Shown piece by piece: positions 1 through 34,470 of a stretch of DNA of 44,015 bases. The first letter of the stretch is position 1, and the number at the start of each line of letters is the position of its first letter. The notes below the pieces were generated by a model. That model saw nothing but the letters and a program-made list of their open reading frames with translations, had not been told where the DNA came from and searched no databases. A program made the translations under genes and the position numbers. Source of the DNA: Escherichia phage vB_VIPECOTPH05B; sequence record PQ429080.1; one strand, written 5' to 3'.

Positions 1-1857
1 TTATCTTCTTCCTCTATGTTGTTTACCTCTGCCCCGGCTCTGCAGCCGAGCAGCTACACCCCGAAGGCCCTTAGACACTTTGCTCTGTGCCCAATCCAAC
101 GGGTTCTCAATGAAGGCCCGAGCCATCTTCTCAGACTCACGCTCAGCCACTACTTTCTCGTCTTCCACCAGGTGCCCGTTCAGCGTAGCCACCATCATGG
201 CGATTGCGTCTGCTCGGTCATCCTTAGCCAGGCTACCGCGGTCGTACGTGATACCAGCCAACTGTGTGAACGCAGAGTACAGCCAACGTCTATCGCGGGA
301 GTACGCCATACAGGTACTGATATCGTCGTGAACCGCACGCTCATGCACCACCAGGCGGTGACGGCGAGTAACTGGGCTGATTGTGTCGATTATACGACGC
401 TCTTTCTGCGTGGAGTTGTTCAGGTCCCTTACACCGATACCGGCGAGACGTCGCTCCCGTAACCGGTTCAGGATAAGCATAGACACGGTGCCGTGCCCCA
501 TGTTGCTCTCCACCACCATATCCGGGATGTCTAACTCTACGCACAGGTCAATCAGTTTATCAATGTTCTCTTCGCTGATACCTCCTTGGAAGCCGCCTAC
601 GGAGAATAGGTGGATGTACGAGTTCGCAGCACCACCAGCAGCGTAGGACACTTCGTCTCCGCCACAACCAGCCGGGTCCACCACCAGCACCTTATGCTGG
701 TACGGCAGGTGCATATCCCCGTAGAATGCTGGGAAGTACATCTGCTGACCCATAATCCCCTCATGCTCGTGCTGGTACAGGTACCGGCGGTCTGCAATGT
801 AAGAGAACGTCTCGGGAGAGGAATCCTGACTGCCTGAGTAAACCAGCATATCCGAAAGCTTGATGCGTGTACGCATCTGGTCGGACAGGGTGGTATCGAG
901 CATGTACTGTAGCTGGAAGCCCTCCGGACCGAAGTCCAGCTCCTTCTCAATCAGTGCATCCTCATCATAGCGCCCAGTGTCTGTGCTCTCGCCTAGCGTC
1001 CCGTCGACGCCGAAGCCGGTGCGTTTATAGCCGCGCTCAATAAGCTCCAGTATATAAGGAGCAAGTGTACTTCCATATCGCTCTTCCATTTCAACAGATG
1101 GAATGCGCCCAGGCCACACGCGGACCTCAAAGCCACGTCCCGGCAGGGTTTTATAGATGCTGTCCTTGGTCTGCGGTGTGCCAAGGTACAGTATGTCCCC
1201 ATGCGTACAGATAGCTGCGAAGTCCTTCGAAATCATCAGCAGCTGCTCACGCTGGGTTTGCGTTAAGCCGTTCTTGGTGGTCTCGATATCGTCTGGAATC
1301 AGCAGGTCCGCACGCTTCCCCTGCAGGGATGCAGTGATACCTACACAGGCCACGCTGGCGGACTTATCCAGTGGTTTCAGGTCGCAGTTGACATCATAAC
1401 CTTCGAATGAAGTACGGTCCCCACGAGTAGGGTCAGCCTTCAAGTAGCACAGCAGTGGCCAGGTTTCCAACATACGAATGATTAGGTTCGCTACATCGGA
1501 CGCCTGCTTCTCTGCACCAGACACAATCAGAATACGGCAGGATTGGTCCTGGATAAGCCTCCAGACGGCATAGAGTGCAGCCAGTGTAGACTTAGCTTCA
1601 CCACGCTGTGCGGCCACCATGCGCTTCCTAGGGCCCTTCTGCATGTACTCTGCAATGTCGGCCTGCATGTCCGTCAGCGTAAAACCCAGGAATCGCATAC
1701 CGATGTACGCGAATTCCCGGAAGTCACTTAACGCAGCGGCCATCATCATCGCGATGTCCTCGCGCTCCTCTTTGGGAATACTGCGCGGATTCGCACTATA
1801 ACCAGTAAGTTTCTGGTTGAGCATGCGCAGTCTTCGCGCAGTCTTCACCGATACCAT
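1..1857 (-). CDS. Terminase large subunit (T7 gp19-like packaging ATPase/nuclease)
   Basis: 618 aa; ATPase-like N-terminal half and nuclease-like C-terminal half typical of T7-group large terminases; last gene of the structural block; stop codon (TAA) occupies window positions 3..1. Confidence 0.88.
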   Translation of the reverse strand: MVSVKTARRLRMLNQKLTGYSANPRSIPKEEREDIAMMMAAALSDFREFAYIGMRFLGFTLTDMQADIAEYMQKGPRKRMVAAQRGEAKSTLAALYAVWRLIQDQSCRILIVSGAEKQASDVANLIIRMLETWPLLCYLKADPTRGDRTSFEGYDVNCDLKPLDKSASVACVGITASLQGKRADLLIPDDIETTKNGLTQTQREQLLMISKDFAAICTHGDILYLGTPQTKDSIYKTLPGRGFEVRVWPGRIPSVEMEERYGSTLAPYILELIERGYKRTGFGVDGTLGESTDTGRYDEDALIEKELDFGPEGFQLQYMLDTTLSDQMRTRIKLSDMLVYSGSQDSSPETFSYIADRRYLYQHEHEGIMGQQMYFPAFYGDMHLPYQHKVLVVDPAGCGGDEVSYAAGGAANSYIHLFSVGGFQGGISEENIDKLIDLCVELDIPDMVVESNMGHGTVSMLILNRLRERRLAGIGVRDLNNSTQKERRIIDTISPVTRRHRLVVHERAVHDDISTCMAYSRDRRWLYSAFTQLAGITYDRGSLAKDDRADAIAMMVATLNGHLVEDEKVVAERESEKMARAFIENPLDWAQSKVSKGLRGVAARLQSRGRGKQHRGRR

Positions 1858-21999: not shown

Positions 22000-22461
22000 T
22001 CACTTGGCGTCAATGCACTTACCTCGGTGCTGCTCGTACAGTTCTGAGTACTTGTCGGACTTGGCAATGTCCTGCTCCAGCTTATCCTTGTTCCCGGCGC
22101 GCAGTCTGTACTTGAGCCGATTCCCTAAGCAGTAGCCGTAGAACTGCTCTTGTGTCATGCTGCGTGCAATGACCTCAATCGCCTCCAGGTCCGGGAAGAA
22201 CTGGTAGTGCTGAGGGGAGTTTACTGCGTCAGGCGCTTTCGGAGTACTTTTCGGCAGTCTCGTCGTACTAATCAGTTGGAAGCAGTCAGGGTCCCACGTG
22301 TGACCGTTACAGCCCTCCAGTATTAAAAGGCCGTGAAATGTGTCTGTAACAACAAGAGGGTGCCCGTCCGACATGCCTAGTTCGTGGCAGAATTGAGCCC
22401 AGTGTGGTTTCCTATGTTGTGCAAGGCGCATAACTACATCACCTTCTTTGAACTTACTCAT
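22000..22461 (-). CDS. Hypothetical protein, member 3 of the MSKFK-G-D-VV paralog family; C-terminus DUF3310-like
   Basis: 153 aa; N-terminus MSKFKEGDVVMR shared with two other genes; C-terminal HYQFFPDLEAIEVIARSMTQEQFYGYCLGNRLKYRLRAGNKDKLEQDIAKSDKY recalls the phage DUF3310 pattern (from memory, unverified). Confidence 0.5.
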   Translation of the reverse strand: MSKFKEGDVVMRLAQHRKPHWAQFCHELGMSDGHPLVVTDTFHGLLILEGCNGHTWDPDCFQLISTTRLPKSTPKAPDAVNSPQHYQFFPDLEAIEVIARSMTQEQFYGYCLGNRLKYRLRAGNKDKLEQDIAKSDKYSELYEQHRGKCIDAK

Positions 22462-22880
22462 TTAATAGTCTCCCGTGCTTTGCGTCGTGCCCGGGCCTTG
22501 CGGGCCTTGAGCTTCTGTGCCTGTGCCAATTCTTCCGGCGTCTTGTGCGTATAGTATAGCATATCCGTGGGTTCACGGTCTAAGTAATCGGCGACCCTAC
22601 GTAGAGATTCAGCAATAGCCCTAGAAGATTGCATGCTACCAACAATCCAGCGCCCAGCGGCAGATGCCACTTTGCCTTCCCCTCCATTGCATGAGCGATG
22701 AAGAGCACCCCGAATACGCCCAGTAATATGATCGTGGTCAACGACAACAGAATCACCAGTTACCCCCTTTATTGTGAAGTCCAAAGGTTTGCCACAAAGG
22801 AGGCATATGCCTCCTTGGTCTTTGGCAAGCTTAATAGCCACGGAGCGAATCTGTGCCCGTGTAATCTTACGTAGGCTCAT
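22458..22880 (-). CDS. Endonuclease VII-like (Holliday-junction resolvase type)
   Basis: Cys-rich zinc site plus DHDHITGRIRGALHRSCN motif, basic C-terminal tail; start taken as the first in-frame ATG (M4 of the track ORF), which overlaps the upstream stop as ATGA. Confidence 0.7.
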   Translation of the reverse strand: MSLRKITRAQIRSVAIKLAKDQGGICLLCGKPLDFTIKGVTGDSVVVDHDHITGRIRGALHRSCNGGEGKVASAAGRWIVGSMQSSRAIAESLRRVADYLDREPTDMLYYTHKTPEELAQAQKLKARKARARRKARETIK

Positions 22881-23080
22881 GCAATACAATCCTCCACCGC
22901 CAAGATTCTGCGGTAGGTGCGCTGCACCCTGCGAAGTTGCTTCTTAGTAGGGCGCGCCCAGAAGAACCAGTAGTAGGTTTCGCTAGGGCTACTGACGGTC
23001 CACATGTACGTAAAGGGATATGGGTTGCAGTTTACGCACTCCCGATGCTTTTTACGTGGTGCTTCAACGTTCAAATTCAT
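22877..23080 (-). CDS. Hypothetical protein (67 aa), Cys/aromatic-rich
   Basis: ORF with ATG start, tightly packed between neighbours; CVNCNPYPF may be a small zinc-binding element. Confidence 0.4.
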   Translation of the reverse strand: MNLNVEAPRKKHRECVNCNPYPFTYMWTVSSPSETYYWFFWARPTKKQLRRVQRTYRRILAVEDCIA

Positions 23081-23274
23081 AGTTCAATCTCCCCGACTAC
23101 ATCCAGCAGAGCATTGTCGTGAATGAGAGAATCCAAATGCTCAACCGTTCTTCGATGTGTTTTGGGTGCCCGTTCACGCAGCGCATCCAGAATAGTTTCA
23201 AGTTCATCATGTTTCCCCTCATAGTATAACTCAATCGCCCGCAGGCTCATTTCCTTCGCAGACATCTTCGCCAT
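23077..23274 (-). CDS. Hypothetical protein (about 65 aa from internal ATG)
   Basis: Track ORF extends to 23343 but would overlap the exonuclease 3' end by over 100 nt; the ATG at 23274 has AGGAG about 11 nt upstream. Confidence 0.4.
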   Translation of the reverse strand: MAKMSAKEMSLRAIELYYEGKHDELETILDALRERAPKTHRRTVEHLDSLIHDNALLDVVGEIEL

Positions 23275-24199
23275 TGTCTGGGTGCTCCTGTATCCACTGT
23301 ATATGCTGTTTATGGTACTCGTGCAGCGAATGCACCCAGTCACGTAGACTGGGAGTAGTCAACAGTGACATCAGATACAGATACGCTGAATCTGATTGGG
23401 AGCGTCTCAGCCACAGGCATTCTGCCTCTGCGAGTACGTCTTGGTTGTTTCGAGCATAGGCCGCTACAACGAATTCTGCGGCGTCCTGCTCCGAGGTAAT
23501 AGGGTAGATAGCATCAAAGGCCGTTCGCTTCCCACAGAGCTTCCCATCAAGCAATGTGATGCCTTTGACATTATCCGCGTCATCCCCTGCTAGCATTTGC
23601 CACCAGAAGAACTTAGTGCCGTGCGCTCGTACCGGCATAGCCTGGGTATCGTCCCACTTAATCCAGCCGAATGGGTTATCCAAGGCAGGCCACACGGTTC
23701 CGGTAGGGATATCGAACCGAGCCATAGGGCTTAGCCAGGAATCCTTGTCCTGCGACATCAGGATTCCCCGGTCCCCGAAGCTGTACGAATCCATTACAAA
23801 GAGGTCGTCGGCCTCAAAGTAGTCACTGCTTACCACCTGTATGCCATGCTCAGAATACTGGTCCGGGTTCTCAATCAGGTGCCGCTTCAACGGTGCCTTG
23901 AGTGGCAGCTCCTGACGCTTATTGCGGTTCCCTTGGTACGGCTTAGCCGTAGGCAGGTGCCAGCGCAGGCACTTAGCACACCCCGTAGGCGTCAGATACG
24001 CCACTGCTTCTGAGCAGCCGACCAGGAACATGTCCTCAAGCAGTAGCTGATAGAAGCGGCGGATTGCGGTGTCCAAACGTTTCACTGTAGCGGCAGATTT
24101 ATAAACTGTGAAATCCGCGTCATACAGCAGAATCTTCCCAGAGTTCTGTGGAGCTAACTGCTCCCCGAGCTGGGACAAGTCAACCCCGTTGATAATCAT
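23231..24199 (-). CDS. 5'-3' exonuclease (T7 gp6 / FEN-like)
   Basis: 322 aa; acidic clusters typical of the FEN/PIN-like fold (YDADFTVYK, FEADDLFVMD, GDDADNVKG). Confidence 0.85.
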   Translation of the reverse strand: MIINGVDLSQLGEQLAPQNSGKILLYDADFTVYKSAATVKRLDTAIRRFYQLLLEDMFLVGCSEAVAYLTPTGCAKCLRWHLPTAKPYQGNRNKRQELPLKAPLKRHLIENPDQYSEHGIQVVSSDYFEADDLFVMDSYSFGDRGILMSQDKDSWLSPMARFDIPTGTVWPALDNPFGWIKWDDTQAMPVRAHGTKFFWWQMLAGDDADNVKGITLLDGKLCGKRTAFDAIYPITSEQDAAEFVVAAYARNNQDVLAEAECLWLRRSQSDSAYLYLMSLLTTPSLRDWVHSLHEYHKQHIQWIQEHPDNGEDVCEGNEPAGD

Positions 24200-24357
24200 T
24201 AGCGCCCCGTAATATCACGGGCCTTCTTGTCGGCCCAGTTAACCCAACGCTCTGCCCACTTTGCCTTGCTGAGCTTGTCGCCCAGGTAGCATAGTCCCGC
24301 CAACGGAATCAGTGGGAGAATCAAAGCTACGTAAATTGCGCGAGATACGTACAGCAT
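24199..24357 (-). CDS. Small putative membrane protein (52 aa)
   Basis: Hand-translated (below the 60-aa track cutoff): MLYVSRAIYVALILPLIPLAGLCYLGDKLSKAKWAERWVNWADKKARDITGR; one hydrophobic helix; TAA stop overlaps the exonuclease ATG (TAATG). Confidence 0.3.
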   Translation of the reverse strand: MLYVSRAIYVALILPLIPLAGLCYLGDKLSKAKWAERWVNWADKKARDITGR

Positions 24358-24359
24358 AA

Positions 24360-24557
24360 TTAAATCTCCAGTCTAGCTACTGATTTAGCTGCCAACTTCA
24401 CCTGCTTGCGGGTAGGTTTAGCGGCCCAGCGCACCACATACATGGTGCCAGGGTCGTCCTCCCGGATAAAGGTTACGTACCAGCGGTTGCAGGCATGTTC
24501 AGCATAAGGTGCCATAAAGCTGTGTCTAGGTGCAGACACCTTTACACGTACGCTCAT
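24360..24557 (-). CDS. Hypothetical protein (65 aa)
   Basis: ATG start; tightly packed between two small membrane-protein ORFs. Confidence 0.4.
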   Translation of the reverse strand: MSVRVKVSAPRHSFMAPYAEHACNRWYVTFIREDDPGTMYVVRWAAKPTRKQVKLAAKSVARLEI

Positions 24558-24559
24558 GC

Positions 24560-24721
24560 TTAAATCTCCAAATTGGCGGTAAAAGCACGGATTGCACGGG
24601 TTAGCACAGATACACCCTTTGCGCCGCCTACCACACTAAGCGCCAATGCCATTAACGTCAAGCCAACTGCGAGTAGCGCCAGCGCAGGAACTAAGATTAT
24701 GTAGGATATAAGTTTACGCAT
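24560..24721 (-). CDS. Small putative membrane protein (53 aa)
   Basis: Hand-translated: MRKLISYIILVPALALLAVGLTLMALALSVVGGAKGVSVLTRAIRAFTANLEI; hydrophobic core consistent with one or two TM helices; ATG overlaps the upstream TGA stop. Confidence 0.3.
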   Translation of the reverse strand: MRKLISYIILVPALALLAVGLTLMALALSVVGGAKGVSVLTRAIRAFTANLEI

Positions 24722-25095
24722 CATTCACCCTCCAGTTCAGAAAGCACCAGCACGGTGCCGAGCATGTCCCCGATTACTTCCGGAGTACGCAGACTCTGGT
24801 CTGCATCGTAAATACAGGAACCAATCTCCGCCAGCCCGATGCTGAGCGTGCCCACTACACGGATAATCACGAGGTCATCACCTCGCAGCTTATCGGCATG
24901 TGCCGCCAGGTCGTTGTGCTCTTTGAAGGCAGTGGCGGCCAGCTCCAGGTCCATGCCGTATAGGGCCGCTAACTCATCTAATGCGTTGTAGATATCATCC
25001 AGGCTAATGTTGCGTACACTGTACGCTGCTGAATCATATACTGCAGCACTAACTGTGATAGCCAGATTCTTGTATGCGTCTAATACTTTATCCAT
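24721..25095 (-). CDS. Hypothetical protein (124 aa), acidic
   Basis: ATG start, four nucleotides after the stop of the upstream gene. Confidence 0.45.
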   Translation of the reverse strand: MDKVLDAYKNLAITVSAAVYDSAAYSVRNISLDDIYNALDELAALYGMDLELAATAFKEHNDLAAHADKLRGDDLVIIRVVGTLSIGLAEIGSCIYDADQSLRTPEVIGDMLGTVLVLSELEGE

Positions 25096-25098
25096 TGC

Positions 25099-25353
25099 TT
25101 ATACCCCCAGGAAGTTAACTACTTCATCACGCTTAGCGCGCAGTTTATCGGCCTGCTCGGCATGCTTCGCCGCTTCATCTTTGCTGTGCTTGGAGGCTTC
25201 TACGCGCGCCTCAGATTGAGCGGCCAGACGCACGGCGTCGTCTGCGAACTTAACTGACAGCTGCTCGTTAAACTGCGCTTTGGCATCGGCGCGTTTAGCT
25301 TCTGCTGTGTAGGCTGCACTCAGGAGTTTGATGAGAATGTTGATGATGTTCAT
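25099..25353 (-). CDS. Hypothetical protein (84 aa), likely coiled-coil
   Basis: ATG with GAGGAAG 5 nt upstream; A/K/E-rich heptad-like sequence. Confidence 0.45.
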   Translation of the reverse strand: MNIINILIKLLSAAYTAEAKRADAKAQFNEQLSVKFADDAVRLAAQSEARVEASKHSKDEAAKHAEQADKLRAKRDEVVNFLGV

Positions 25354-25564
25354 AGGCTTCCTCTAAGGCCCCATGCGGGGCCATATTAGTTTAGATTAGT
25401 GTCGTTTAGCTTTGTGTGCAGAGTGCACTTCGGGGCTAGTAGACTTCTCCGAAAGCAGGGAGTCGCGTCTGGCTTTCATATCAGCAACAAGCCCGTTAAG
25501 GCGCACAGCTAAAGATAGCATGTATTCAAGGCTTCTTTGTCTGTTCACGGATACCTCCGGTATA

Positions 25565-26398
25565 TTAGGCTTGAGGTGCAGCAGGCGCTGCTGGCGCTAC
25601 AGGAGCCGCGGGGGCCACTGGAGCAGCTGGGGCTGCCGGTGCTTGCGGTGCAGCGGGAGCCGCCGGTGCAGAAGGAGCAGCAGGTGCCTGCATAGCTGCC
25701 GGACTCGGAACAGAGCCAGCGTTCAGCATAATATCCAGAGCACTGCCCGGGAAGTCAACAGCCTTGTACATGTCTTCCTGAATCCAGTTCTTGCTCTTAC
25801 CGTCGTCGAAGGTGCCTTCGATGTGCAGGCTATCCCAGGTCTCTTTGGTTGGGTTGTTCCACAGGAACAGCTTAATCTCAGAGGCATCCAGGGCTGGCAT
25901 CTTGATAGGCTCGCCGGTGTTCGGGTCGAACTTCGGAATCGGGCGGATACCGGACAGGTCCACGATGTTAGACTTCTTGCCCGCGGCACTGGTGTGCTCA
26001 TCAATCGGGAAGGTGAAGGCCTGCCCCAGACGCTGTGCCGCATGCTTAATGCTGTTGTCGTAATTGAGCTTGTCGAAGAACTTCTTGAAGCCTGCTCGCT
26101 CAAAGTTACTGATAGCCATCGGGTACGGGCGGATACGCTTCACTTCGCCGTTAGGGCCGAACACTACAATGCCAATGCGTACGTTAGACACTGCAGGCTT
26201 ACCAGTAGGCTTACCACCCTTAGTCGGCAGGCGCTTACCGATTTCCACGTACTCGGTGAAGTAGCCGTAGTACTCACCCTTCGGAAGCAGCACATCCTCG
26301 TACGCACCACCCTGTGAGGTCTCGGTCATATCAACATCTTGCGTTTCGATCGCAGCAGCTACCAGGGAGTTCAGAGTGTCCAGTGCATTCATAGTCAT
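25565..26398 (-). CDS. Hypothetical protein with C-terminal Ala-Pro repeat tail (possible ssDNA-binding protein)
   Basis: 277 aa; GAGGA 10 nt upstream of ATG; ends in about 40 residues of (A/P/Q/V/S) repeats; sits in the replication block where T7-like phages encode SSB, but no diagnostic motif was recognised. Confidence 0.5.
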   Translation of the reverse strand: MTMNALDTLNSLVAAAIETQDVDMTETSQGGAYEDVLLPKGEYYGYFTEYVEIGKRLPTKGGKPTGKPAVSNVRIGIVVFGPNGEVKRIRPYPMAISNFERAGFKKFFDKLNYDNSIKHAAQRLGQAFTFPIDEHTSAAGKKSNIVDLSGIRPIPKFDPNTGEPIKMPALDASEIKLFLWNNPTKETWDSLHIEGTFDDGKSKNWIQEDMYKAVDFPGSALDIMLNAGSVPSPAAMQAPAAPSAPAAPAAPQAPAAPAAPVAPAAPVAPAAPAAPQA

Positions 26399-26453
26399 AT
26401 AATTACGTCCTCGTTTATTTCAAATGATATTTACGTGCAGATGCAGGCCCAAC

Positions 26454-26651
26454 CTAGCGGTTCTTGAGTGCGGACTTAATGCCGATAGCCGCAGCTGCCG
26501 CCACTCCACCCGCCGCCAGAATTGCCAACAGCAAGGCGATGCCGCCGTAGAATGGAAGCAGTACCCACCACCAGGACCAGGCGATAACTCCGGTCAGTTT
26601 CAGGGTTACAAAGATAAGGCCCAGTACAGAACAGATTCCCATTTTCATCAT
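26454..26651 (-). CDS. Small membrane protein (two predicted TM helices)
   Basis: Start taken at the internal ATG cluster (ATGATGAAAATG) just after the phosphoesterase stop, with GAGGTG upstream; sequence GICSVLGLIFVTLKLTGVIAWSWWWVLLPFYGGIALLLAILAAGGVAAAAAIGI. Confidence 0.45.
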   Translation of the reverse strand: MMKMGICSVLGLIFVTLKLTGVIAWSWWWVLLPFYGGIALLLAILAAGGVAAAAAIGIKSALKNR

Positions 26652-26661
26652 CACCTCGATA

Positions 26662-27687
26662 TTATTTAGAACGACCAACCCAACGACCATCGTCGTCGAG
26701 CAGCATCGGAATTAACTGCGGGCAACCCTCAGTGATTACCATCACACCCAGGATTGGTTTCTTGCGGGTGAGCCTGCCATAAGCAAAGGCCATACTCTTG
26801 CGGTCAATTAGACACCCTGCGTACGCCCCGAAGTACAACGCCATGCTGCTAGCCGCATATTGGACCTCGAAGCGGCCATGCTCATGCCCCAACACCAGAG
26901 AGGTGCGCTCATGGGATGCATTGAGCATGAAATCACCGCTGACTTGATGCTGGAACCGTACAGGCCCCAGCGGTGTATTGAGCACCCAAGCATCGGCCCA
27001 CGACCACGCCGGAGCACCGTGCTCAGGGAATAGGATATCCCGGTACTTCTTGATAAATTGCACTGGCAAACCGTGAGCTTTAGCGCGGCGATATACGAGT
27101 GAACCATGATTGGAATCGCAAACCAGTAGGTTCGGGAATAGTTCATGCAGCTCCTCCAGTACGAGCTTGGCTTTCTCCAGCTCAACCCCGGCGCTGTCCA
27201 GGTTAGGGTCAGAGTCATGGAAGCTGATAGCGTGCCCGTCGGTTTCGTCACCAACCTGCACTACCATGTCCGGGCAGTACGCATCACGTACGCTCTCAAG
27301 GAATGGCATAGCGTCTACGTGGGTATACGGAGCGTGCAGGTCTCCTACCACCAGGATGCGGTGGCACATGTCCGGCACCTTTGTATTCCCGATATCGTCC
27401 GTTGGGCTTGGTTGGATTAGCTTACGCGCCGCCTGCAGCCCGCGGTTGGCACTGGCCTTGCTGCCCTTGTTATCCATGAATATGCTGCGCCAGTAGCGCA
27501 CAAGCTGGCGGGATACACTAATGTCCGTATCCACATCCCCACGGTTGTCCAGCTCCTGGTTGTAGTACTGCGCGGCCAGGGCGTTGTCAAGGTACTGACC
27601 TAGGATTGCCTGGTGCTGCTCTTTGGTGAATAGTTTTATTAGACTGACTCTAGCCAAGGTTGCCTCTCTTGTGTTGTTCCTACTCAT
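26662..27687 (-). CDS. Calcineurin-like metallophosphoesterase with an N-terminal extension of about 100 aa
   Basis: 341 aa; motifs VVGDLHAPY, GDETDGH, DSNHG, GHEHGRF match the metallophosphatase signature; no obvious SD before the ATG. Confidence 0.75.
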   Translation of the reverse strand: MSRNNTREATLARVSLIKLFTKEQHQAILGQYLDNALAAQYYNQELDNRGDVDTDISVSRQLVRYWRSIFMDNKGSKASANRGLQAARKLIQPSPTDDIGNTKVPDMCHRILVVGDLHAPYTHVDAMPFLESVRDAYCPDMVVQVGDETDGHAISFHDSDPNLDSAGVELEKAKLVLEELHELFPNLLVCDSNHGSLVYRRAKAHGLPVQFIKKYRDILFPEHGAPAWSWADAWVLNTPLGPVRFQHQVSGDFMLNASHERTSLVLGHEHGRFEVQYAASSMALYFGAYAGCLIDRKSMAFAYGRLTRKKPILGVMVITEGCPQLIPMLLDDDGRWVGRSK

Positions 27688-27818
27688 ATCACATTAATTT
27701 GCTGAGAATCACAGAATCAAGCCAGAGTCAACAAATAATTTTATTTAATTATTTAGTTGACCCTAGTGTATTTCCATGCTACCCTAACCCCCTACACCAC
27801 TCAAGGATCCACCTATCA
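27688..27818 (-). promoter_or_regulatory. AT-rich intergenic region with imperfect inverted repeat (GTCAACAAATAA ... TTATTTAGTTGAC)
   Basis: 131 bp with no ORF in a genome where most genes overlap; AT content well above the rest; repeat arms at about 27727..27738 and 27749..27761; TTGACT/TTGATT -35-like hexamers on the minus strand. Confidence 0.35.
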
Positions 27819-28037
27819 CTATTCCACGATAAGCTTGTACTCCCCGGCGAAGAAGGTAACACCATCCCCTGGTTCTTCTGAACCGCCTGGGTTAACAAGC
27901 TCCACCTCCCACGTGACGGGGTCGTACCCGATAACCCGATGCTGTGTGCCCGGGGCGTAATACAATGCCAGCTTAGGGTCGATTGGCTCTGGCCCAAGTT
28001 CCAACATCTCCACAATACTGCCAGGTTTGATAGTCAT
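27819..28037 (-). CDS. Hypothetical protein (72 aa)
   Basis: ATG overlaps the DNA polymerase stop (ATGA). Confidence 0.45.
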   Translation of the reverse strand: MTIKPGSIVEMLELGPEPIDPKLALYYAPGTQHRVIGYDPVTWEVELVNPGGSEEPGDGVTFFAGEYKLIVE

Positions 28038-30391
28038 TCTACTTTCTCCTTACTGTACATACTCGTACCCATCTCAGCCTCTGCTGGGAACGGGACCTCA
28101 CCAATGATACCGTAGTTAGGCCAGAGCTGGTGGATACGCTTAGGTGCGTCCTCCATGCACTGCTTAACCAGCAGGCTCGCCTCACGTCCAACCTCCGGGT
28201 TGGCGCTGTCCAGATACAATGCATCGTGTACGTTCGTAATCAGGCACACCTGATTGTCGAACCAGTCACGGGCCAGGAGTGCACGCAGAACCATACCAGC
28301 CGCCACCGCCATCAGGAAGAATGCTTCCCCCTGGCACCAGTAGTTAGCCATCTCGGTTTCCTTGTAGTCCATGACCTTCTGCTTACGCTGCCCAGGCACA
28401 ACCTCCTTCCACTGCTCCTTCTGGCGGAAGCTATAGCGGGCACCGGCTGGGCTGGTCCACGTCCCAATGCGATACAGTCGGTAGCTGCCGTCGTCCGCCT
28501 GCTCGCGGTACATGCGCCCCTCGTTCCCGGTACGCTCTACCTCTTCCTTGACAACAGCACGGAATCCGATGGTGTCTGGAAACAGCTTCGCCTCGTTATC
28601 CAGGAACGACTGCGCATACTCCACTGTACAGCCTGTAGCAAACGCGATCCCTTTAGCCGTAGCCCCGTACTGTGCAGCAAAGCTGGGCGGCTTAATATCA
28701 GTACGCTGCTGCTTCCAGTACTTGTAGTCCGGTCCGTCTGGGTTATGGCAGAGGTCGTACATCTCCTCGTACGTCTTACCTTCCTTGAACGCTAGGCGAT
28801 AGCAGTGCATGTCCGTGCCCGCCTGTAGTAACCCCAATAATTTGCGGTCTCCAGTGTGAACACAAGACATAACCACTTCCAGGGCAGAGTAGTCAACCTC
28901 AGTGATACGACCAGCTTCTCCGAAACGAGAGGTGAACATCTGCTTAACCCGGCTTGTGCCATCGCGCGGTAGATTCTGGAGGTTCGGGTTAGAGCCCGAC
29001 AGTCGCCCGGTGACAGTGGCACAGGTGTTAAGACGGTGGTGGATAATACCTGAACCATCAGGGTTCTGAGGTATGACGTATTGAAGCATGCCCGAGGTCT
29101 TTTTAACTGACCCATCTTCGTTGTACTCCGTTCTCAGGTAATAGGTCCCTGTGTCTTTCTCTAGAGCACCTAACTCGTTTACCAATCGGCAGAGCTCGAA
29201 ACCTTGGCGAGCCAGTGCCTCCATTGCGTCAGTGCTGGTGCTGTATACTGGCGTACCGTCCTGCAGGGTGCGCGCCTGTCGGAACTCTCCGCGCTCTGCG
29301 TACTTCTCCCGGATAACTTCCGGAAGCTCCTGTATGTTCACCAGTCCCGGGCAGAAGTAAAGGTCATCCTCCCACTTGAGCTTCTCCTCGTCAGTGTCCA
29401 CTCGGAACACTTTAGGTAGGCCCTTGTTCTTCCCTGCTTTGTAGACTACGTAATTGTGAGGTCCAGAGACGTCCGTGCTTTCACATGGTACGAATGTTCC
29501 ATCAGTGCCCTGTACCAGATATGCGTCATACTTAACGTACTGCGGAGGGTCATAGGGTACCTTCTTGCGGTACTTGATAGGCCCGCCGTATACCAGTGCA
29601 GACATATGGAAGTCCGAGCCGAAGTTGAAATCCAGTGTCTCCGGCAAGTCCTTCGGGATGTACTGCTGCAGCTCCTGCTTAATCTCACGGATGCGCTGCT
29701 CCTGCTCCTCCTGGTTCTTGCGCGCAATTGGCATGTTCACGAACAGGCCGAACCATTGACAATAGCTCCAAGCTAGTACTGCCTCCATCCGTTCGTAGAC
29801 ATATTGCATCTGGTTGCGTTCGGCGAATAGGGCGCATTGCCCATAGAAGCACAGCCCGGTATTTGGCACGTCACCGTTGACAAGGTAATCGTGAAGCAGG
29901 TACGGGTCAATTTCGGAAGTCCGCTTTCCTTGCTCCCACAGTATCTTTACCCCATCGACTTTGTGCTGACCACCCCATTTTGGGGCGGTCTCATCTAGCC
30001 CCGGATACATCTCCTGGAAATCTGAGGCTATGTACTGCCCATGCTGCGTACAATATACGCGCCCGCCGCGCTTTAGGAAATCCTCAAAATGTTTTCTCTG
30101 ATATGAGAGGAACCAAGACACCTCGAAGCTGCTGTTGTGCGCGACTATCATAGTGCAGTGTTCTGGTATGGAAAACCACTGGTGCGGCCCCTCGTTGTCC
30201 GCCAGAAACTCAGCCTTGTTGTTGAAGCGAATACTGAATACGTCCCCTATATGCAACTGCCCGGCATCGTCCACCGTGTCTATGCGGTATGCGCTTTCTA
30301 CAACATAGTTATCGGGGCAGTACGGGGATGCTACGTTGCCGTAGTACTCAAAGTTCTCGACCTCTAAATCCACTATCATAATCTGGTACAT
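28034..30391 (-). CDS. DNA polymerase, family A (T7 gp5-like) with N-terminal 3'-5' exonuclease domain
   Basis: 785 aa; DnaQ-like exo motif near the N-terminus (IVDLEVENFEY) and Pol I-type polymerase motifs in the C-terminal half. Confidence 0.95.
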   Translation of the reverse strand: MYQIMIVDLEVENFEYYGNVASPYCPDNYVVESAYRIDTVDDAGQLHIGDVFSIRFNNKAEFLADNEGPHQWFSIPEHCTMIVAHNSSFEVSWFLSYQRKHFEDFLKRGGRVYCTQHGQYIASDFQEMYPGLDETAPKWGGQHKVDGVKILWEQGKRTSEIDPYLLHDYLVNGDVPNTGLCFYGQCALFAERNQMQYVYERMEAVLAWSYCQWFGLFVNMPIARKNQEEQEQRIREIKQELQQYIPKDLPETLDFNFGSDFHMSALVYGGPIKYRKKVPYDPPQYVKYDAYLVQGTDGTFVPCESTDVSGPHNYVVYKAGKNKGLPKVFRVDTDEEKLKWEDDLYFCPGLVNIQELPEVIREKYAERGEFRQARTLQDGTPVYSTSTDAMEALARQGFELCRLVNELGALEKDTGTYYLRTEYNEDGSVKKTSGMLQYVIPQNPDGSGIIHHRLNTCATVTGRLSGSNPNLQNLPRDGTSRVKQMFTSRFGEAGRITEVDYSALEVVMSCVHTGDRKLLGLLQAGTDMHCYRLAFKEGKTYEEMYDLCHNPDGPDYKYWKQQRTDIKPPSFAAQYGATAKGIAFATGCTVEYAQSFLDNEAKLFPDTIGFRAVVKEEVERTGNEGRMYREQADDGSYRLYRIGTWTSPAGARYSFRQKEQWKEVVPGQRKQKVMDYKETEMANYWCQGEAFFLMAVAAGMVLRALLARDWFDNQVCLITNVHDALYLDSANPEVGREASLLVKQCMEDAPKRIHQLWPNYGIIGEVPFPAEAEMGTSMYSKEKVE

Positions 30392-30392
30392 A

Positions 30393-30866
30393 CTAAACCT
30401 CTAAATATCCCAGAGAATTGGCGGCCGCCTTTCTGGCAGCAGCGGCCTCTTCCAGTGAGTGGAATCTTCCCAAACGCACTTGCTTTCCGTCCCGGTTTAC
30501 GTATGCCGACCAGCGTTTCCGCCTGGCATCGTATGACACCCCGGGGACTCCAGAACTATTGCGCTTATCCGTGGTTTTGTTTCGGTTATTTAGTGTCACC
30601 GGAACTGCCCTGAGATTGTCAATACGGTCGTCTTCCCGGTTTCGGTTTATGTGGTCTATAACGCACCCACTAGGAATATCCCCGTAGTGCATTTCCCAAA
30701 CAATCCTTGCGCGTTTGTACGCCCTTCCATTTAACCCCACAACCCAGCGGTTGTGGTGCCTTTCCAGGTACCCCGCCAATTTACCAGGCTGACACGCGCC
30801 ATTTGGGCTGGTGTGGGTCCAGTATAGTTTACCATCCTTGTACGTGAAGTGTTCTTTCCAGTTCAT
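30393..30866 (-). CDS. HNH homing endonuclease with AP2-like domain (paralog of 15715..16191)
   Basis: HNH motif (RIVWEMHYGDIPSGCVIDHINRNREDDRIDNLRAV) and AP2-like C-terminus (WSAYVNRDGKQVRLGRFHSLEEAAAARKAA); track ORF begins at GTG 30872, first ATG is 30866. Confidence 0.8.
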   Translation of the reverse strand: MNWKEHFTYKDGKLYWTHTSPNGACQPGKLAGYLERHHNRWVVGLNGRAYKRARIVWEMHYGDIPSGCVIDHINRNREDDRIDNLRAVPVTLNNRNKTTDKRNSSGVPGVSYDARRKRWSAYVNRDGKQVRLGRFHSLEEAAAARKAAANSLGYLEV

Positions 30867-31018
30867 TTCCACTTAGCCCTCCGAGCCTTGTTGATAGCCA
30901 GATGCACAATCAGCTGGCTGCTATCCAGTGCGAATCGTTTACGGAAAGTACCTGCAGATGCAGCGTACGCCTTGATTACCTCGTCGTCGAGGTAGTTAAT
31001 GTCTGACGGTTTAAGCAT
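30863..31018 (-). CDS. Small hypothetical protein (51 aa)
   Basis: Hand-translated: MLKPSDINYLDDEVIKAYAASAGTFRKRFALDSSQLIVHLAINKARRAKWK; AGGAGG 6 nt upstream of ATG; TGA stop overlaps the HNH ATG. Confidence 0.3.
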   Translation of the reverse strand: MLKPSDINYLDDEVIKAYAASAGTFRKRFALDSSQLIVHLAINKARRAKWK

Positions 31019-31040
31019 AATCTCCTCCTGTGTACCTACA

Positions 31041-31063
31041 TAGCGCCCTCGTAGAAGGCGCTA
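31041..31063 (-). promoter_or_regulatory. Conserved intergenic hairpin, copy C
   Basis: Inverted repeat TAGCGCC / GGCGCTA around a loop containing GTAG; same architecture as copies at 38491 and 39519. Confidence 0.4.
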
Positions 31064-31069
31064 GGGAAG

Positions 31070-31396
31070 TCACTTGATTGGCGGAATATCAATAGCCTCT
31101 AGCAGCGGCTGCTGCAGCAGGTACGTGTTATATTCCTGTATCGCCTGCACCGCCAAGCCTCGCAGTCGCAATGCTTCGTTTACGTCCCAGCTAGTGCCTG
31201 GCGATTCCAGGACGAACGCTTCCTCATCAAAGTGGAATGTAGTCTCCTTAGATTCGGCCAGTCTTATGGAAGCGTCCCTGTCGCTTACGGCACACACAGT
31301 GTATACCGTACCCACCCGCACTCCAGTGCGGCGTTTTATTTCGGGGCTAACCTTGCCGGTCCGTACAACTTTATCACCAACTTTAAATTTAGACAT
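31070..31396 (-). CDS. Hypothetical protein, member 2 of the MSKFK-G-D-VV paralog family
   Basis: 108 aa from internal ATG (M47 of the track ORF); begins MSKFKVGDKVVRTG; ATG overlaps the last codons of the helicase (8-nt overlap). Confidence 0.5.
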   Translation of the reverse strand: MSKFKVGDKVVRTGKVSPEIKRRTGVRVGTVYTVCAVSDRDASIRLAESKETTFHFDEEAFVLESPGTSWDVNEALRLRGLAVQAIQEYNTYLLQQPLLEAIDIPPIK

Positions 31397-32669
31397 TAAC
31401 CTGACCCTCATCAAATCTACAACGTCCAGGCTCGAATCCCACCTCGAATTGCAGGAGCGACTCTTTACCAGATAGTGCCATCTTGTTCTTAGGAGTACTG
31501 ATACCGCGGACGTTTTGCATGTGCGGCTGCTCATTTCTGTCCAAGCACCCCATCATAATCGCCAAGTCCAAGGCACCCTGTACGCCAATCTTGCTCTGCT
31601 TCATAGCGGTGAGCGGAGGAAAGAGCATGTTGTAACCTTCGAGTGAAAGCTGCATAGTGCCTACTATAGCGCAGTCATTCTCGCACCCAAGTATGCGCAG
31701 CTCCTGCCATTTCGCTTCGAGGTTCTGGTGCTCGGTCTCCATAGTACCGCCACGGATGTTAGCCACCATGTCGATGATGATTACCGCGGGGCGCATCTCC
31801 TCCATGAGTGTGGATATCTGGGCCATCGTCAAGGAGTGCGCAGCCTTAACACGAATCCGGTCAGCCCTGCCTACTTTCTTGAGGTAGGCTGGCACGAACT
31901 CTTGCTTACTGTGCCGGTCCTTAATCTCAGCCAGAGTCCAGTGTAGCGCCGCTTGATATACCCTCGGCACTGTGCGCGTCGCCGGACCCTCGTTAACCAG
32001 CCAGAGGATAGGGCGGTCCCCGTACACTTCCGGCTGCTGCTGCATTTGCTCAGCAAAATCCACAGCAATAGCAGCAAGCAGACTAGTTTTACCAGAGTCC
32101 ACAGGAGCAGCCACTGCGATGCAGTCCCCGCCACGTAGACCTCGGATGTTGCTAGCGAGTTGCTCGAACACGCCCAGTTTAAGACCGCCGCTCTCATCAG
32201 TCGCGGCAAGTATCTCGTCAACACTACCGCTCTCCCATTCAAGCAGCGAATCATGCACCGCAGCGCCATCACCGTACTTGCGCTGCAGGTGCTTCATCTC
32301 CAGTAGGTAATCAATCTCCTCGCCGTCTTGGTAGCGTTGCGTAAGCGCCGCAACCTCCCCACTATAGGCCAGCTCGTTCAGGGTCTGGACAATCCCTACC
32401 ACAGAATCCTGCGGCACGGCTTGTACCCCCCGCATAAGCTCATCCATGATTACCCGCTCTTCCCGGGATAAGTGCCCGGCCCGGAGATTGAGCATGCTCT
32501 GCATCGCATCCCACTGCACCTCCTGGTGCTCCGGATACGTGTTCCAGTACAGCCCCACCCAGTCCAGAAGGTTCGAAGTATCCGGAGCAAGCATCGACTT
32601 AGGTATCTGCTCTCTCAGGCGGCTCCATACCTTCTGCGTGCACATTGCACGAACAACTATAAGGTCCAA
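31389..32669 (-). CDS. Replicative DNA helicase (DnaB-like / T7 gp4 helicase-domain-like)
   Basis: 426 aa; Walker A (VDSGKTSLL) and RecA-like core motifs; apparent TTG start with AAGGAGGT 6 nt upstream (first ATG would be 32645). Confidence 0.85.
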   Translation of the reverse strand: MDLIVVRAMCTQKVWSRLREQIPKSMLAPDTSNLLDWVGLYWNTYPEHQEVQWDAMQSMLNLRAGHLSREERVIMDELMRGVQAVPQDSVVGIVQTLNELAYSGEVAALTQRYQDGEEIDYLLEMKHLQRKYGDGAAVHDSLLEWESGSVDEILAATDESGGLKLGVFEQLASNIRGLRGGDCIAVAAPVDSGKTSLLAAIAVDFAEQMQQQPEVYGDRPILWLVNEGPATRTVPRVYQAALHWTLAEIKDRHSKQEFVPAYLKKVGRADRIRVKAAHSLTMAQISTLMEEMRPAVIIIDMVANIRGGTMETEHQNLEAKWQELRILGCENDCAIVGTMQLSLEGYNMLFPPLTAMKQSKIGVQGALDLAIMMGCLDRNEQPHMQNVRGISTPKNKMALSGKESLLQFEVGFEPGRCRFDEGQVNV

Positions 32670-32797
32670 TTCTTACCTCCTTCCAAAGCCTCTTGCACCA
32701 GTCTGGCTATTACTGCCCGAAGCTGCTGTGTCCCATGATAGAGAACAGCCGCGTCTCTTAGTTTGTTAACTAGCTCCCGCTGGATGTGTGGTTGCAT
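32657..32797 (-). CDS. Small hypothetical ORF (46 aa)
   Basis: Hand-translated: MQPHIQRELVNKLRDAAVLYHGTQQLRAVIARLVQEALEGGKNWTL; ATG overlaps upstream stop (TGATG); its 3' end contains the helicase SD. Could be untranslated leader. Confidence 0.25.
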   Translation of the reverse strand: MQPHIQRELVNKLRDAAVLYHGTQQLRAVIARLVQEALEGGKNWTL

Positions 32798-32991
32798 CAA
32801 ACCTCCTTCGGAATGCAGATTGCCTTAGCGGTATACACCCGGAATGTGTTGAACTTCTCTTCGAACGCCTTAGCTGCCTTGTTGCAGGCGGCCTCAGTTG
32901 TGAACTCTTGTGTAGTCAGGGCGGCGAAATCTGTATCGCTAACCGCGCTGCCATTAATCGCCATGATTAAAACCCAGATACCCGTAGTCAT
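32797..32991 (-). CDS. Hypothetical protein (64 aa), hydrophobic N-terminus
   Basis: ATG overlaps the primase stop (ATGA); MTTGIWVLIMAINGSAV may be a signal peptide or TM segment. Confidence 0.4.
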   Translation of the reverse strand: MTTGIWVLIMAINGSAVSDTDFAALTTQEFTTEAACNKAAKAFEEKFNTFRVYTAKAICIPKEV

Positions 32992-33773
32992 TGTAAAGCC
33001 TCCAGAATCTCTTTGATTGTTGCATCCTTAGGGTCCGCAGCGAAGTAATGCTCACGGCACTGCATGAACGGACGCAGTGCTCGACGTGCTGCTGCTACCC
33101 CAGCGTGCCCTGCCGGGTCATTGTCCAGCATCAGAATCACTTCCGGGCGATTCTGAATCAGCCAAGCCCTCAGCGGCGTGGGCAAGCGTGTACCCAGCAT
33201 AGCTATAGCCTGCACGTTCAACGCACTGTAGTTCGTAACTGCGTGCTGTATCTTCCGGGCTGAGAGTAAGTCCTCGGTAAGCACGACCTTTAGAGGCGCG
33301 GCCGCAGCTACAGCCGGTGCTACGGCAGGTGCCGCGACAGCGAAAGCTATTGGCTGGCCGTACATTACCCACTTCGGTTGCTGCCGAGCATGCACTGCAC
33401 GGCCCAGAGCAGCGCTTCCGACACGGAAGATTATCCGCTGTTTCTCTTTGCTCCATTCTGCATCCTCCACCATTTCAGGCATGATTCCCTTTGTGGTCAG
33501 GAATCCGTAAATAAAACTCTGCGTTTCCGCAGGCGCTTGGCTAATGCAAATTGCATCTGCAGGTGCAGAGGGCTGCACCCTCGGCTCTTCCTGTAACTGT
33601 ATGCGCTGGTACTGCTTGTGCTCCTTGCCCACCTGCTTGCAGCGGTGGCAATAATATTCCCAGGCATCCGGGTTATTGTAGAGCACCCCGGCTTCGTCCC
33701 TGCCGCAGCACCGAAAGCGCGCCCTCTGCCCCACGGCCAGGCGCTTGCACGCTCTAAGCCAGGGTTGGTCCAT
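32988..33773 (-). CDS. DNA primase (zinc-binding domain plus TOPRIM)
   Basis: 261 aa; Cys pairs in the N-terminus (CCGRDEAG ... CHRCK) and TOPRIM-like acidic motif (VILMLDNDPAG); encoded separately from the helicase. Confidence 0.8.
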   Translation of the reverse strand: MDQPWLRACKRLAVGQRARFRCCGRDEAGVLYNNPDAWEYYCHRCKQVGKEHKQYQRIQLQEEPRVQPSAPADAICISQAPAETQSFIYGFLTTKGIMPEMVEDAEWSKEKQRIIFRVGSAALGRAVHARQQPKWVMYGQPIAFAVAAPAVAPAVAAAAPLKVVLTEDLLSARKIQHAVTNYSALNVQAIAMLGTRLPTPLRAWLIQNRPEVILMLDNDPAGHAGVAAARRALRPFMQCREHYFAADPKDATIKEILEALQ

Positions 33774-33991
33774 TACGGCACCTCGTGCAGCACTATCCCT
33801 TGGTAGTTCTCGTAGATGCCGCAGCGGTCCCCCACGTCATCTACAAGCTCGTAGAATGTGAAGCAATTAACATACCCCATGGCGTATTCACCCACCTCGG
33901 AACGGGTAGCTGGGTAAATCTTGTTCAAGGTTAAGTCCGCTGCAGCAGGGTTGCGTCCCTTGTCAGTTACTACAATATTAACAGCCTTCAT
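33773..33991 (-). CDS. Hypothetical protein (72 aa)
   Basis: ATG overlaps upstream stop; its TAA overlaps the primase ATG (TAATG). Confidence 0.4.
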   Translation of the reverse strand: MKAVNIVVTDKGRNPAAADLTLNKIYPATRSEVGEYAMGYVNCFTFYELVDDVGDRCGIYENYQGIVLHEVP

Positions 33992-34470
33992 TGTGCTTTC
34001 TCCTTACGCTTGATTTCCATAGCCATGCGGCGCAGGTCGTGGGCCAACTGCAGTGCAGCGTCAGGTTCCAGGTTGATAGCCAGTATATTGCCGTAAGCTA
34101 GGGGATCAAACTTTTTACCGCTCTTCACTATGGCAATACTTAGGTGCCCCTCTAACTCCCAATGTGGCTGCACTAGCATGTGCTGGAAGTTGTCTTCACT
34201 GCTAGTGCTGTTATAGTACATAACGCTATCCGGAACCGGCGGCAGTTCGTCCTCTGGTTCTTGGTACAGCTCAAAGTTGCAGGCGGCCCAAGGATGTTCA
34301 TCATACACCTTAGACACACCATTTACCTGCAACCAGTAGCCCCCGGAAGGTACCGACGTAACTGTATAGTAGGCAGAGTCTCCGAGCATATGCAGAAAGT
34401 CTTCATCTTTACGGCCGCCTACTGTACGTACAACCTTATCACCAACTTTAAACTTAATAAACTTAGACAT
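33988..34470 (-). CDS. Hypothetical protein, member 1 of the MSKFK-G-D-VV paralog family
   Basis: 160 aa; begins MSKFIKFKVGDKVVRTVGG; ATG 2 nt after the stop of the peptidase-like gene. Confidence 0.5.
   Translation of the reverse strand: MSKFIKFKVGDKVVRTVGGRKDEDFLHMLGDSAYYTVTSVPSGGYWLQVNGVSKVYDEHPWAACNFELYQEPEDELPPVPDSVMYYNSTSSEDNFQHMLVQPHWELEGHLSIAIVKSGKKFDPLAYGNILAINLEPDAALQLAHDLRRMAMEIKRKEKAQ

Follow-up and report, generated by a model that had tools for sequence, protein, structure and literature searches.

What joins three proteins of one small phage genome that begin in nearly the same way and end quite differently? The question is raised by a 44,015-nucleotide (nt) stretch from Escherichia phage vB_VIPECOTPH05B (sequence record PQ429080.1), hereafter the window, in which three genes, called A, B and C below (see the table), encode proteins that open with close variants of MSKFKVGDKVV. 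A preliminary description of the same DNA had proposed a shared N-terminal module fused to different C-terminal domains, had regarded such an arrangement as unusual for so small a genome, and had named two trivial outcomes, namely a similarity confined to the first few residues and a duplicated context of ribosome-binding site and start codon. We are confident that A, B and C share a homologous N-terminal domain of 62–70 residues and that this anatomy is right.

Pairwise BLASTP by itself is too weak to decide on the homology: A and B matched over 11 of 11 residues only (E 6e-5), A and C showed 26% identity across 147 residues (E 8e-5), and B and C gave no match, so that family profiles were required. 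With profiles of 110–120 orthologs per protein, in all three of which the start motif is kept, profile–profile comparison with hhalign aligned the N-terminal parts with probabilities of 98.4% for A–B (E 9e-15, 49 aligned columns), 98.9% for A–C (E 1.7e-17, 61 columns) and 98.0% for B–C (E 1.5e-13, 45 columns), while the C-terminal parts did not align with each other (probability <1%), as the proposed combination of one module with different C-terminal domains implies. When the start motif was cut off, the rest still aligned in register, with probabilities of 94.7% (A–C), 85.8% (A–B) and 57.8% (B–C), which speaks against a similarity limited to the first residues. The earlier statement that the proteins share nearly the same 12–14 residues and diverge afterwards is therefore right about the start only, since the similarity continues across the whole domain of ~65 residues. 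The three module lineages are ~25–35% identical to one another. All three N-termini also align to the same segment of phrog_4317 (positions 206–284, with starts at 206–208; 206–266 for B), which is matched by A at E 2e-50 (residues 6–159), by B at E 1.6e-6 (residues 1–62) and by C at E 2.6e-7 (residues 1–82).

The window contains exactly three members of this family, because two kinds of scan over its open reading frames (ORFs) matched A, B and C only. When the hidden Markov model (HMM) of each family was run against the 814 six-frame ORFs, the best non-self matches were the other two families (E 3.8e-9 to 0.11) and all other ORFs had E >0.3; when the module profile was compared by hhalign with the 85 minus-strand ORFs, A, B and C reached 99.3–99.7% and any other ORF at most 4.3%. 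A fourth copy was found by neither scan. One further candidate, a 72-residue ORF at 27819..28037 on the minus strand (phrog_6862), starts with MTIKPGSIVEM, like the first strand of an SH3-type barrel; it showed no detectable relation to the module. This ORF is fully conserved in relatives.

The shared start reflects conservation at the protein level, and the three copies are old, separate paralog lineages rather than recent duplicates or products of gene conversion, because of four features of their sequences. The three start codons are preceded by unrelated sequences, which belong in each case to the conserved end of another gene. Ser2 is encoded by TCT in A and B and by AGT or AGC in C, and the two kinds of codon are not interconvertible. 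Synonymous variation is found throughout the motif and is frequent among orthologs. Finally, the modules group strictly by family and not by genome, the nearest neighbour of each lying within its own family for 347 of 347 modules. The starts of the three paralogs also differ from each other within other genomes, and gene conversion or concerted evolution among the paralogs was rejected on this ground together with the family clustering and the Ser2 codons. The idea that no more than a translation-initiation context was copied at the start, or that gene conversion recently left a tract there, could appeal to the A/T-richness of the first 39–48 nt and to the starts of A and B, which are identical at 30 of 33 nt, including an exact run of 17 nt. 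This last likeness arises because the peptides are identical and A/T-ending codons are shared, and the homology runs ~50 residues past the motif. The results thus already refute a copied start, to which we assign virtually no chance, and the second of the two trivial outcomes is ruled out by the unrelated upstream regions, the Ser2 codons and the synonymous variation.

Codons 2–13 have a GC content of 25–39% in A, B and C against 51–54% for the remainder of these genes, and for this genome generally the means are 45% and 53%. We considered the A/T-rich start as a special signal and dropped it, as it is a general trend in 28 neighbouring genes, with A and B low but inside the distribution. In gene A, codons 3–8 (34447-34464, minus strand) carry a 9-nt tandem duplication, AAGTTTATT/AAGTTTAAA, which inserts I-K-F and gives the start the form MSKF-IKF-KVGD; this form was found in 3 of 120 A orthologs only.

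The module is predicted to be an SH3-like small beta-barrel domain. Given residues 1–70 of A together with a 46-sequence alignment spanning all three families, AlphaFold2 returned a confident model with a predicted local distance difference test score (pLDDT) of 88.6 and a predicted template-modelling score (pTM) of 0.76, with strands at residues 12–15 (DKVV, strand 1), 35–39, 46–49 and 66–68 and a short helix at 23–29 in the first loop. The same fold of the N-terminal domain was recovered in the full-length model of A. The conserved start M-S-K-F-K-V-G-D-K-V-V-R makes up strand 1 and the residues leading into it, while the other conserved blocks (YTVTxV, xIxL and W..xF) make up the remaining strands; the core positions G7, D8, V10, R12, W/F and F are invariant in the 46 diverse module sequences. 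The model thus has the properties of the SH3-like small-barrel class, that is, a barrel of ~60 residues with 4–5 antiparallel strands and with SH3, KOW, Tudor and chromo neighbours. A structure search gave HERC2 and MIB1 as the best neighbours. In a viral structure library the module matched uncharacterised phage proteins as well as entries named 'Nucleotide kinase' (Klebsiella phage F19) and 'SaV-like', and PDB sequence searches with the module gave nothing significant.

Behind the module the three proteins are unrelated. C contains DUF3310 (PF11753) at residues 80–139 (E 8.8e-21, 74.2 bits against a cutoff of 24), and its residues 78–149 are 63% identical to residues 120–194 of T7 gp1.7 (BLASTP, E 6e-31), which places C, by the presence of DUF3310, with the gp1.7-like proteins; A and B lack DUF3310. 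T7 gp1.7 is a nucleotide kinase with dGMP and dTMP as substrates. Its N-terminal 119 residues do not match the module and have no counterpart in C, which is a putative nucleotide kinase by annotation only. The tail of A consists of a conserved acidic Pro-rich linker with the pattern ELPPxPxSVxY, or more fully EPEDELPPVPxSVxY, a beta region of variable length and a conserved basic helix (PDAALQLAHDLRRMAMEIKRKEK). The C-terminal part of A was modelled with low confidence (pLDDT 52–71) as four strands plus a helix, and this low-confidence model resembles the strand-plus-helix domains of Pur-alpha, PC4, Whirly and COMM; for this domain no significant match was obtained when Pfam and PDB were searched by sequence. 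Domains of this type have three or four antiparallel strands followed by a helix and form an intertwined dimer, and PC4 and PUR bind single-stranded DNA (ssDNA) or RNA. We take the resemblance as a lead only, according to which the C-terminal part of A may be of the strand-plus-helix type and possibly capable of dimerisation and of ssDNA binding. The tail of B is an acidic, helical segment of 46 residues. A 106-residue B ortholog of Klebsiella phage Hope (P0201) is named 'Nucleotide kinase' in UniRef although the B family lacks DUF3310. The name was probably transferred via the shared N-terminal module, so that the definition of the module explains at least one probable annotation error.

The module is widespread. 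When its alignment profile was searched across 1.84 billion representative proteins, 860 protein clusters were matched at E<=1e-3 and 49 at E<=1e-10; the architecture counts that follow refer to the best 147 of the 860 clusters. The module begins within the first 10 residues in 132 of the 147, with MSK as the commonest start, and at least two tandem copies are present in 68. The 115 tails of at least 40 residues fell into 70 BLAST tail clusters, the largest of which have 14, 11 and 7 members and contain representatives of families C, A and B, respectively. In Pfam, matches were found to SH3_15 (15 proteins), NHase_beta_C (11), DUF3310 (8) and PF24203 (3), with single cases of dGTP_diPhyd_N and of a Tad2-like domain. 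Only some distant module-bearing proteins pass the threshold of SH3_15 (P0404 with 58 bits and P0437 with 38.8 bits), and the module seems to be tied loosely to the MIB/HERC2 repeat family, because a module copy and the SH3_15 match overlap in both P0404 and P0353. The top-scoring multi-repeat protein of the module search is a eukaryotic gene.

The genomic contexts that we looked at were mostly phage DNA-metabolism blocks. On a T7-like metagenomic contig (L018, 1360-2232), a gp1.7 homolog carries three tandem modules ahead of DUF3310 and adjoins genes for a gp2-like RNA polymerase inhibitor and DNA ligase; another contig has a fusion of the module to dGTP_diPhyd_N beside endonuclease VII and polynucleotide kinase/phosphatase, and further module genes lie near ligase, PhoH and primase-helicase genes. 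Among sequenced phages, tblastn with the module consensus hit 238 records, mostly Drulisvirus. In a survey of 11 Drulisvirus loci, gene A was present in all 11, always between the peptidase and primase genes, gene C in 8 and gene B in only 2, which gives 1, 2 or 3 module copies per genome. Since the copy number varies in this way, three copies are the upper end of a range and not an oddity. In the 3 loci without C, its slot between endonuclease VII and RNA polymerase is taken by a polynucleotide kinase and a dATP/dGTP pyrophosphohydrolase, both without the module, and the C slot is thus an exchangeable nucleotide-metabolism slot. The replacements lie at 701-1506 in L003, 399-1204 in L009 and 701-1506 in L011.

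The module and its tails have evolved very differently, most strikingly in C. Mean pairwise identity is 41% in the module and 94% in the tail for family C, 55% and 84% for family B, and 56% and 65% for family A, in which the variability extends across the whole gene and is not confined to the module; the start motif itself is 70–86% identical. In a nucleotide comparison of gene C among 8 phages, mean identity was 95–99% upstream of the gene, 79% over the first 30 nt, 35–58% in the module body (nt 31–225) and 81–95% in the DUF3310 part. Synonymous difference (pS) was 0.81, that is, saturated, in the module and 0.39 in the tail. Clustering at 60% identity divides the C modules into 15 allele groups, the two least similar modules being 21% identical, whereas it leaves the DUF3310 tails in a single group in which no pair falls below 73%. 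This pattern suggests that old divergent alleles of the C module have been shuffled by recombination at conserved borders, rather than that recent point mutation has been rapid. The ratio of nonsynonymous to synonymous change (dN/dS) was uninformative as a test of positive selection, as the estimate of ~0.3 is unreliable because the synonymous sites of the C module are saturated. More generally, genes A and B and the C module belong to the loci that vary in a backbone which is conserved elsewhere.

The closest parallel in architecture is a trio of phage T4 proteins. GoF and MotB.1, together with Frd.2, form a family with an N-terminal LSm-like five-stranded barrel of SH3 topology (Kim et al. 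2025, PMC12152347); they are early proteins of non-essential genes, and their relationship was missed by BLASTP (PMC12152347). Like A, B and C, they are three proteins of one phage with a homologous N-terminal barrel, linkers and different C-terminal domains. Unlike them, the module described here has the strict MSKFKVGDKVV start and frequent tandem repeats, and hhalign of the module profile against the trio revealed no detectable homology (GoF 0.3%, MotB.1 2.6%, Frd.2 0.6%). Given the analogous trio of T4, the 860 clusters, the 70 tail clusters and the one to three copies in Drulisvirus, we do not regard the arrangement as unusual for a small genome. From the evidence at hand the module represents a sequence family that has not been described before, with a fold that is very familiar, and its use is typical of phage domain shuffling.

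Other known families are related to the module in part. The SH3_15 family of Mind bomb and HERC2 (PF18346) is like it in supplying the best structural neighbours, in occurring as tandem repeats, in matching 15 of the 147 module-bearing proteins and in that a eukaryotic protein with multiple repeats is also picked up by the module profile. MIB repeats sit in large eukaryotic E3 ligases, in contrast to the single N-terminal domains of small phage proteins considered here, and neither A, B and C nor any of the 46 diverse modules matched PF18346 at E<=1 (gathering threshold 24 bits). Phage_ProQ_C_like (PF24203), a phage family with a Tudor/SH3-like fold, was the only recurrent near-match in Pfam. 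It was hit by residues 1–55 of B (E 0.0016, 19.5 bits against a 27-bit cutoff) and not by A or C, and by 5 of the 46 modules at E<=1 (best E 0.0011); these matches stay below the gathering score and cover the first half of the 112-position profile only. For C, T7 gp1.7 is the nearest system by virtue of the DUF3310 homology and of an equivalent position in the DNA-metabolism block of the Autographiviridae, but it has an unrelated N-terminal region of 119 residues where C has the module. The cluster phrog_4317 effectively catalogues the module, as A is a member and B, C and 109 of the 147 module-bearing proteins match it. It is, however, a cluster of whole proteins, its profile spans 455 positions, neither an annotation nor a domain definition is attached to it, and B and C are placed in other PHROGs. 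As for the Tudor-like barrels of CarD and TRCF-RID, the CarD matches (E about 0.5–1) were not significant, and the KOW glycine motif is absent.

What, then, could such a module do? The reading that we favour, although tentatively and at somewhat less than an even chance, is that it acts as a portable docking (adaptor) domain, whose conserved core would carry variable loops for binding a partner, either protein or peptide, inside the infected cell. Different effector tails, among them one like a nucleotide kinase and a beta/alpha domain that may dimerise or bind nucleic acids, would be brought to a common place in early or middle infection, and the exchange of the module body between phages by recombination at conserved borders would retune partner specificity. 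A protein or peptide is favoured as the partner because the modules are not basic, because the barrels of MIB and HERC2 bind peptides and because variable loops suit a specificity surface; the combination of a conserved core with a variable remainder was also counted for a binding surface over a catalytic or nucleic-acid role. The SH3-type barrels of MIB and HERC2 repeats are docking, peptide-binding units. Among phage proteins, Nip, in which two SH3-like domains are present, complexes with SpbK, a defence protein (PMC11984713). Several points weigh against a docking role. The mechanism is argued from fold class and architecture alone; a common partner of A, B and C is an assumption, and lineages only ~25–35% identical could bind different things; the hypervariability might have arisen from a loosening of constraint and not from a retuning of specificity; and A, B and C fall below the gathering threshold of every Pfam SH3 family.

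We consider it unlikely that the module is instead a barrel that binds nucleic acids, of KOW, Tudor-like ProQ C-terminal or Sm type, and tethers the tails to phage DNA, replication intermediates or transcripts. The fold class does take in KOW, Tudor and ProQ C-terminal domains, the sole recurrent near-match in Pfam is Phage_ProQ_C_like, the genes lie within the replication and transcription block, the start motif contains K3, K5, K9 and R12, and the N-terminal barrels of T4 have been proposed to act on RNA (PMC12152347). However, the net charge of the modules is about 0 (medians: family A, 0; family B, +2; family C, 0; median isoelectric point 6.6 over 229 modules), so that the basic charge signature of nucleic-acid binding is absent. 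In addition, the hypervariable residues of the surface beyond the core would be an uncommon feature for binding nucleic acid in a generic manner, no KOW glycine signature is present and every Pfam match is below threshold. It is also quite unlikely, in our estimate, that the module has no external ligand and serves oligomerisation, folding or solubility, autoinhibition of toxic tails, or simply as a reused stable N-terminal scaffold. Overexpressed DUF3310 proteins such as SaV and Waterfoul gp47 are toxic (PMC8306868, PMC9339283), tandem arrays would suit a scaffold, variable sequence on a conserved core fits weak functional constraint, and the A/T-rich MSK start favours expression. Yet purifying selection still acts on the module, as seen from its invariant core positions, the module persists over 860 clusters, DUF3310 proteins work without it in T7 and many other phages, and A/T-rich starts are a general trend in the genome.

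A role in immune evasion bears on the hypervariability in particular. The variable module body might mainly evade host immune sensors by masking or diversifying the surface of conserved effector domains seen by defence systems, with alleles exchanged through recombination in an arms race, and we regard this as highly unlikely even though T7 gp1.7, a homolog of the C tail, activates Avs5 (PMC11897194), SaV, a DUF3310 protein, determines sensitivity to the abortive-infection system AbiV, and one module-bearing protein has a Tad2-like anti-defence domain. The sharply bounded hypervariable cassette of gene C, with its 15 allele groups and saturated synonymous sites, and the fact that A, B and C count as variable loci in a conserved backbone would also fit such a role. 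On the other hand, the links to Avs5 and AbiV concern gp1.7 and SaV and not the module itself, T7 gp1.7 lacks the module and its recognition by Avs5 is unmapped to any region of gp1.7, and family A varies over the whole gene rather than in the module alone. A broader version, very unlikely in our view, is that the module is a specificity cassette swappable by recombination, a hypervariable SH3-like head between a conserved start and a linker and effector, which would retarget conserved effectors such as DUF3310 or hide them from sensors of the Avs5 or AbiV type. If true, such a swappable cassette would be a protein-level analogue of exchangeable receptor-binding tips, acting inside the cell.

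The genomic setting of the three genes is that of a KP34-like phage. The 14 kb of the window that were compared are 100% identical to Klebsiella phage vB_VIPKPNMC07C (PQ505478.1; Autographiviridae, Slopekvirinae, genus Drulisvirus, KP34-like group), of whose record the window is the reverse complement, so that the genes of the DNA-metabolism block at 19–35 kb, including A, B and C, lie on the minus strand. The three ORFs are where the preliminary description had placed them, though all on this strand, and the deposited record annotates them with identical limits; plus-strand translations at the same coordinates are nonsense. The numbers of homologs are 1143 for A, among them KP34 gp12, 110 for B and 545 for C. 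Gene B, an accessory gene, lies directly downstream of the DnaB-like helicase gene; a longer B ORF, extending to 31534, overlaps the helicase gene, and the B module begins at the Met at 31396. That the three genes lie beside primase, helicase and RNA polymerase genes, as the preliminary description had pointed out, is uninformative, because the whole block is a DNA-metabolism region in which almost any gene neighbours a replication or transcription gene. Moreover, B is missing from most relatives, and C is swapped for other nucleotide-metabolism genes in some.

Table. Positions of genes A, B and C and of their parts in the window
Feature	Coordinates	Strand	Residues	Start	Description
Gene A	33988..34470	(-)	160 aa	MSKFIKFKVGDKVVRT	KP34 gp12 ortholog; phrog_4317; annotated hypothetical
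A module	34261..34470	(-)	1-70		predicted SH3-like small beta-barrel
A C-terminal part	33988..34260	(-)	71-160		acidic Pro-rich linker, variable beta region, conserved basic helix
Gene B	31070..31396	(-)	108 aa	MSKFKVGDKVVRT	phrog_19629; hypothetical
B module	31211..31396	(-)	1-62		
Gene C	22000..22461	(-)	153 aa	MSKFKEGDVVMR	annotated nucleotide kinase; phrog_2585/1689
C module	22258..22461	(-)	1-68		body hypervariable among relatives, flanks conserved
C effector domain	22015..22230	(-)	78-149		DUF3310, homologous to T7 gp1.7 C-terminal region

Some other features of the block were noted in passing. An HNH endonuclease gene at 30393-30866 on the minus strand, beside the DNA polymerase gene, is absent from 10 of 10 compared Drulisvirus loci (0.01 aligned) and is probably a lineage-specific homing-endonuclease insertion. 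The phrog_862 protein at 25565-26398 (minus strand) ends in PAAPxAP repeats and is annotated, depending on the record, as 'large tegument protein' or 'DNA polymerase', while in one related record a 'single strand DNA binding protein' is listed hereabouts; a 301-residue ORF on the opposite strand over it (25412-26317) is probably an artefact. In the KpV71 record (L008, feature 1-559), the label 'N4-like RNA polymerase' is given to an RNA polymerase of the single-subunit T7 type, an oddity of annotation.

The module provides a domain definition, with fold, boundaries and core, for many 'hypothetical' early and middle phage proteins that have so far shared only a PHROG number, and identifying its binding partner could annotate hundreds of proteins at once. 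The bounded hypervariable module in a gp1.7-like gene also offers a place to seek phage–host specificity or immune evasion in therapeutic Klebsiella phages.

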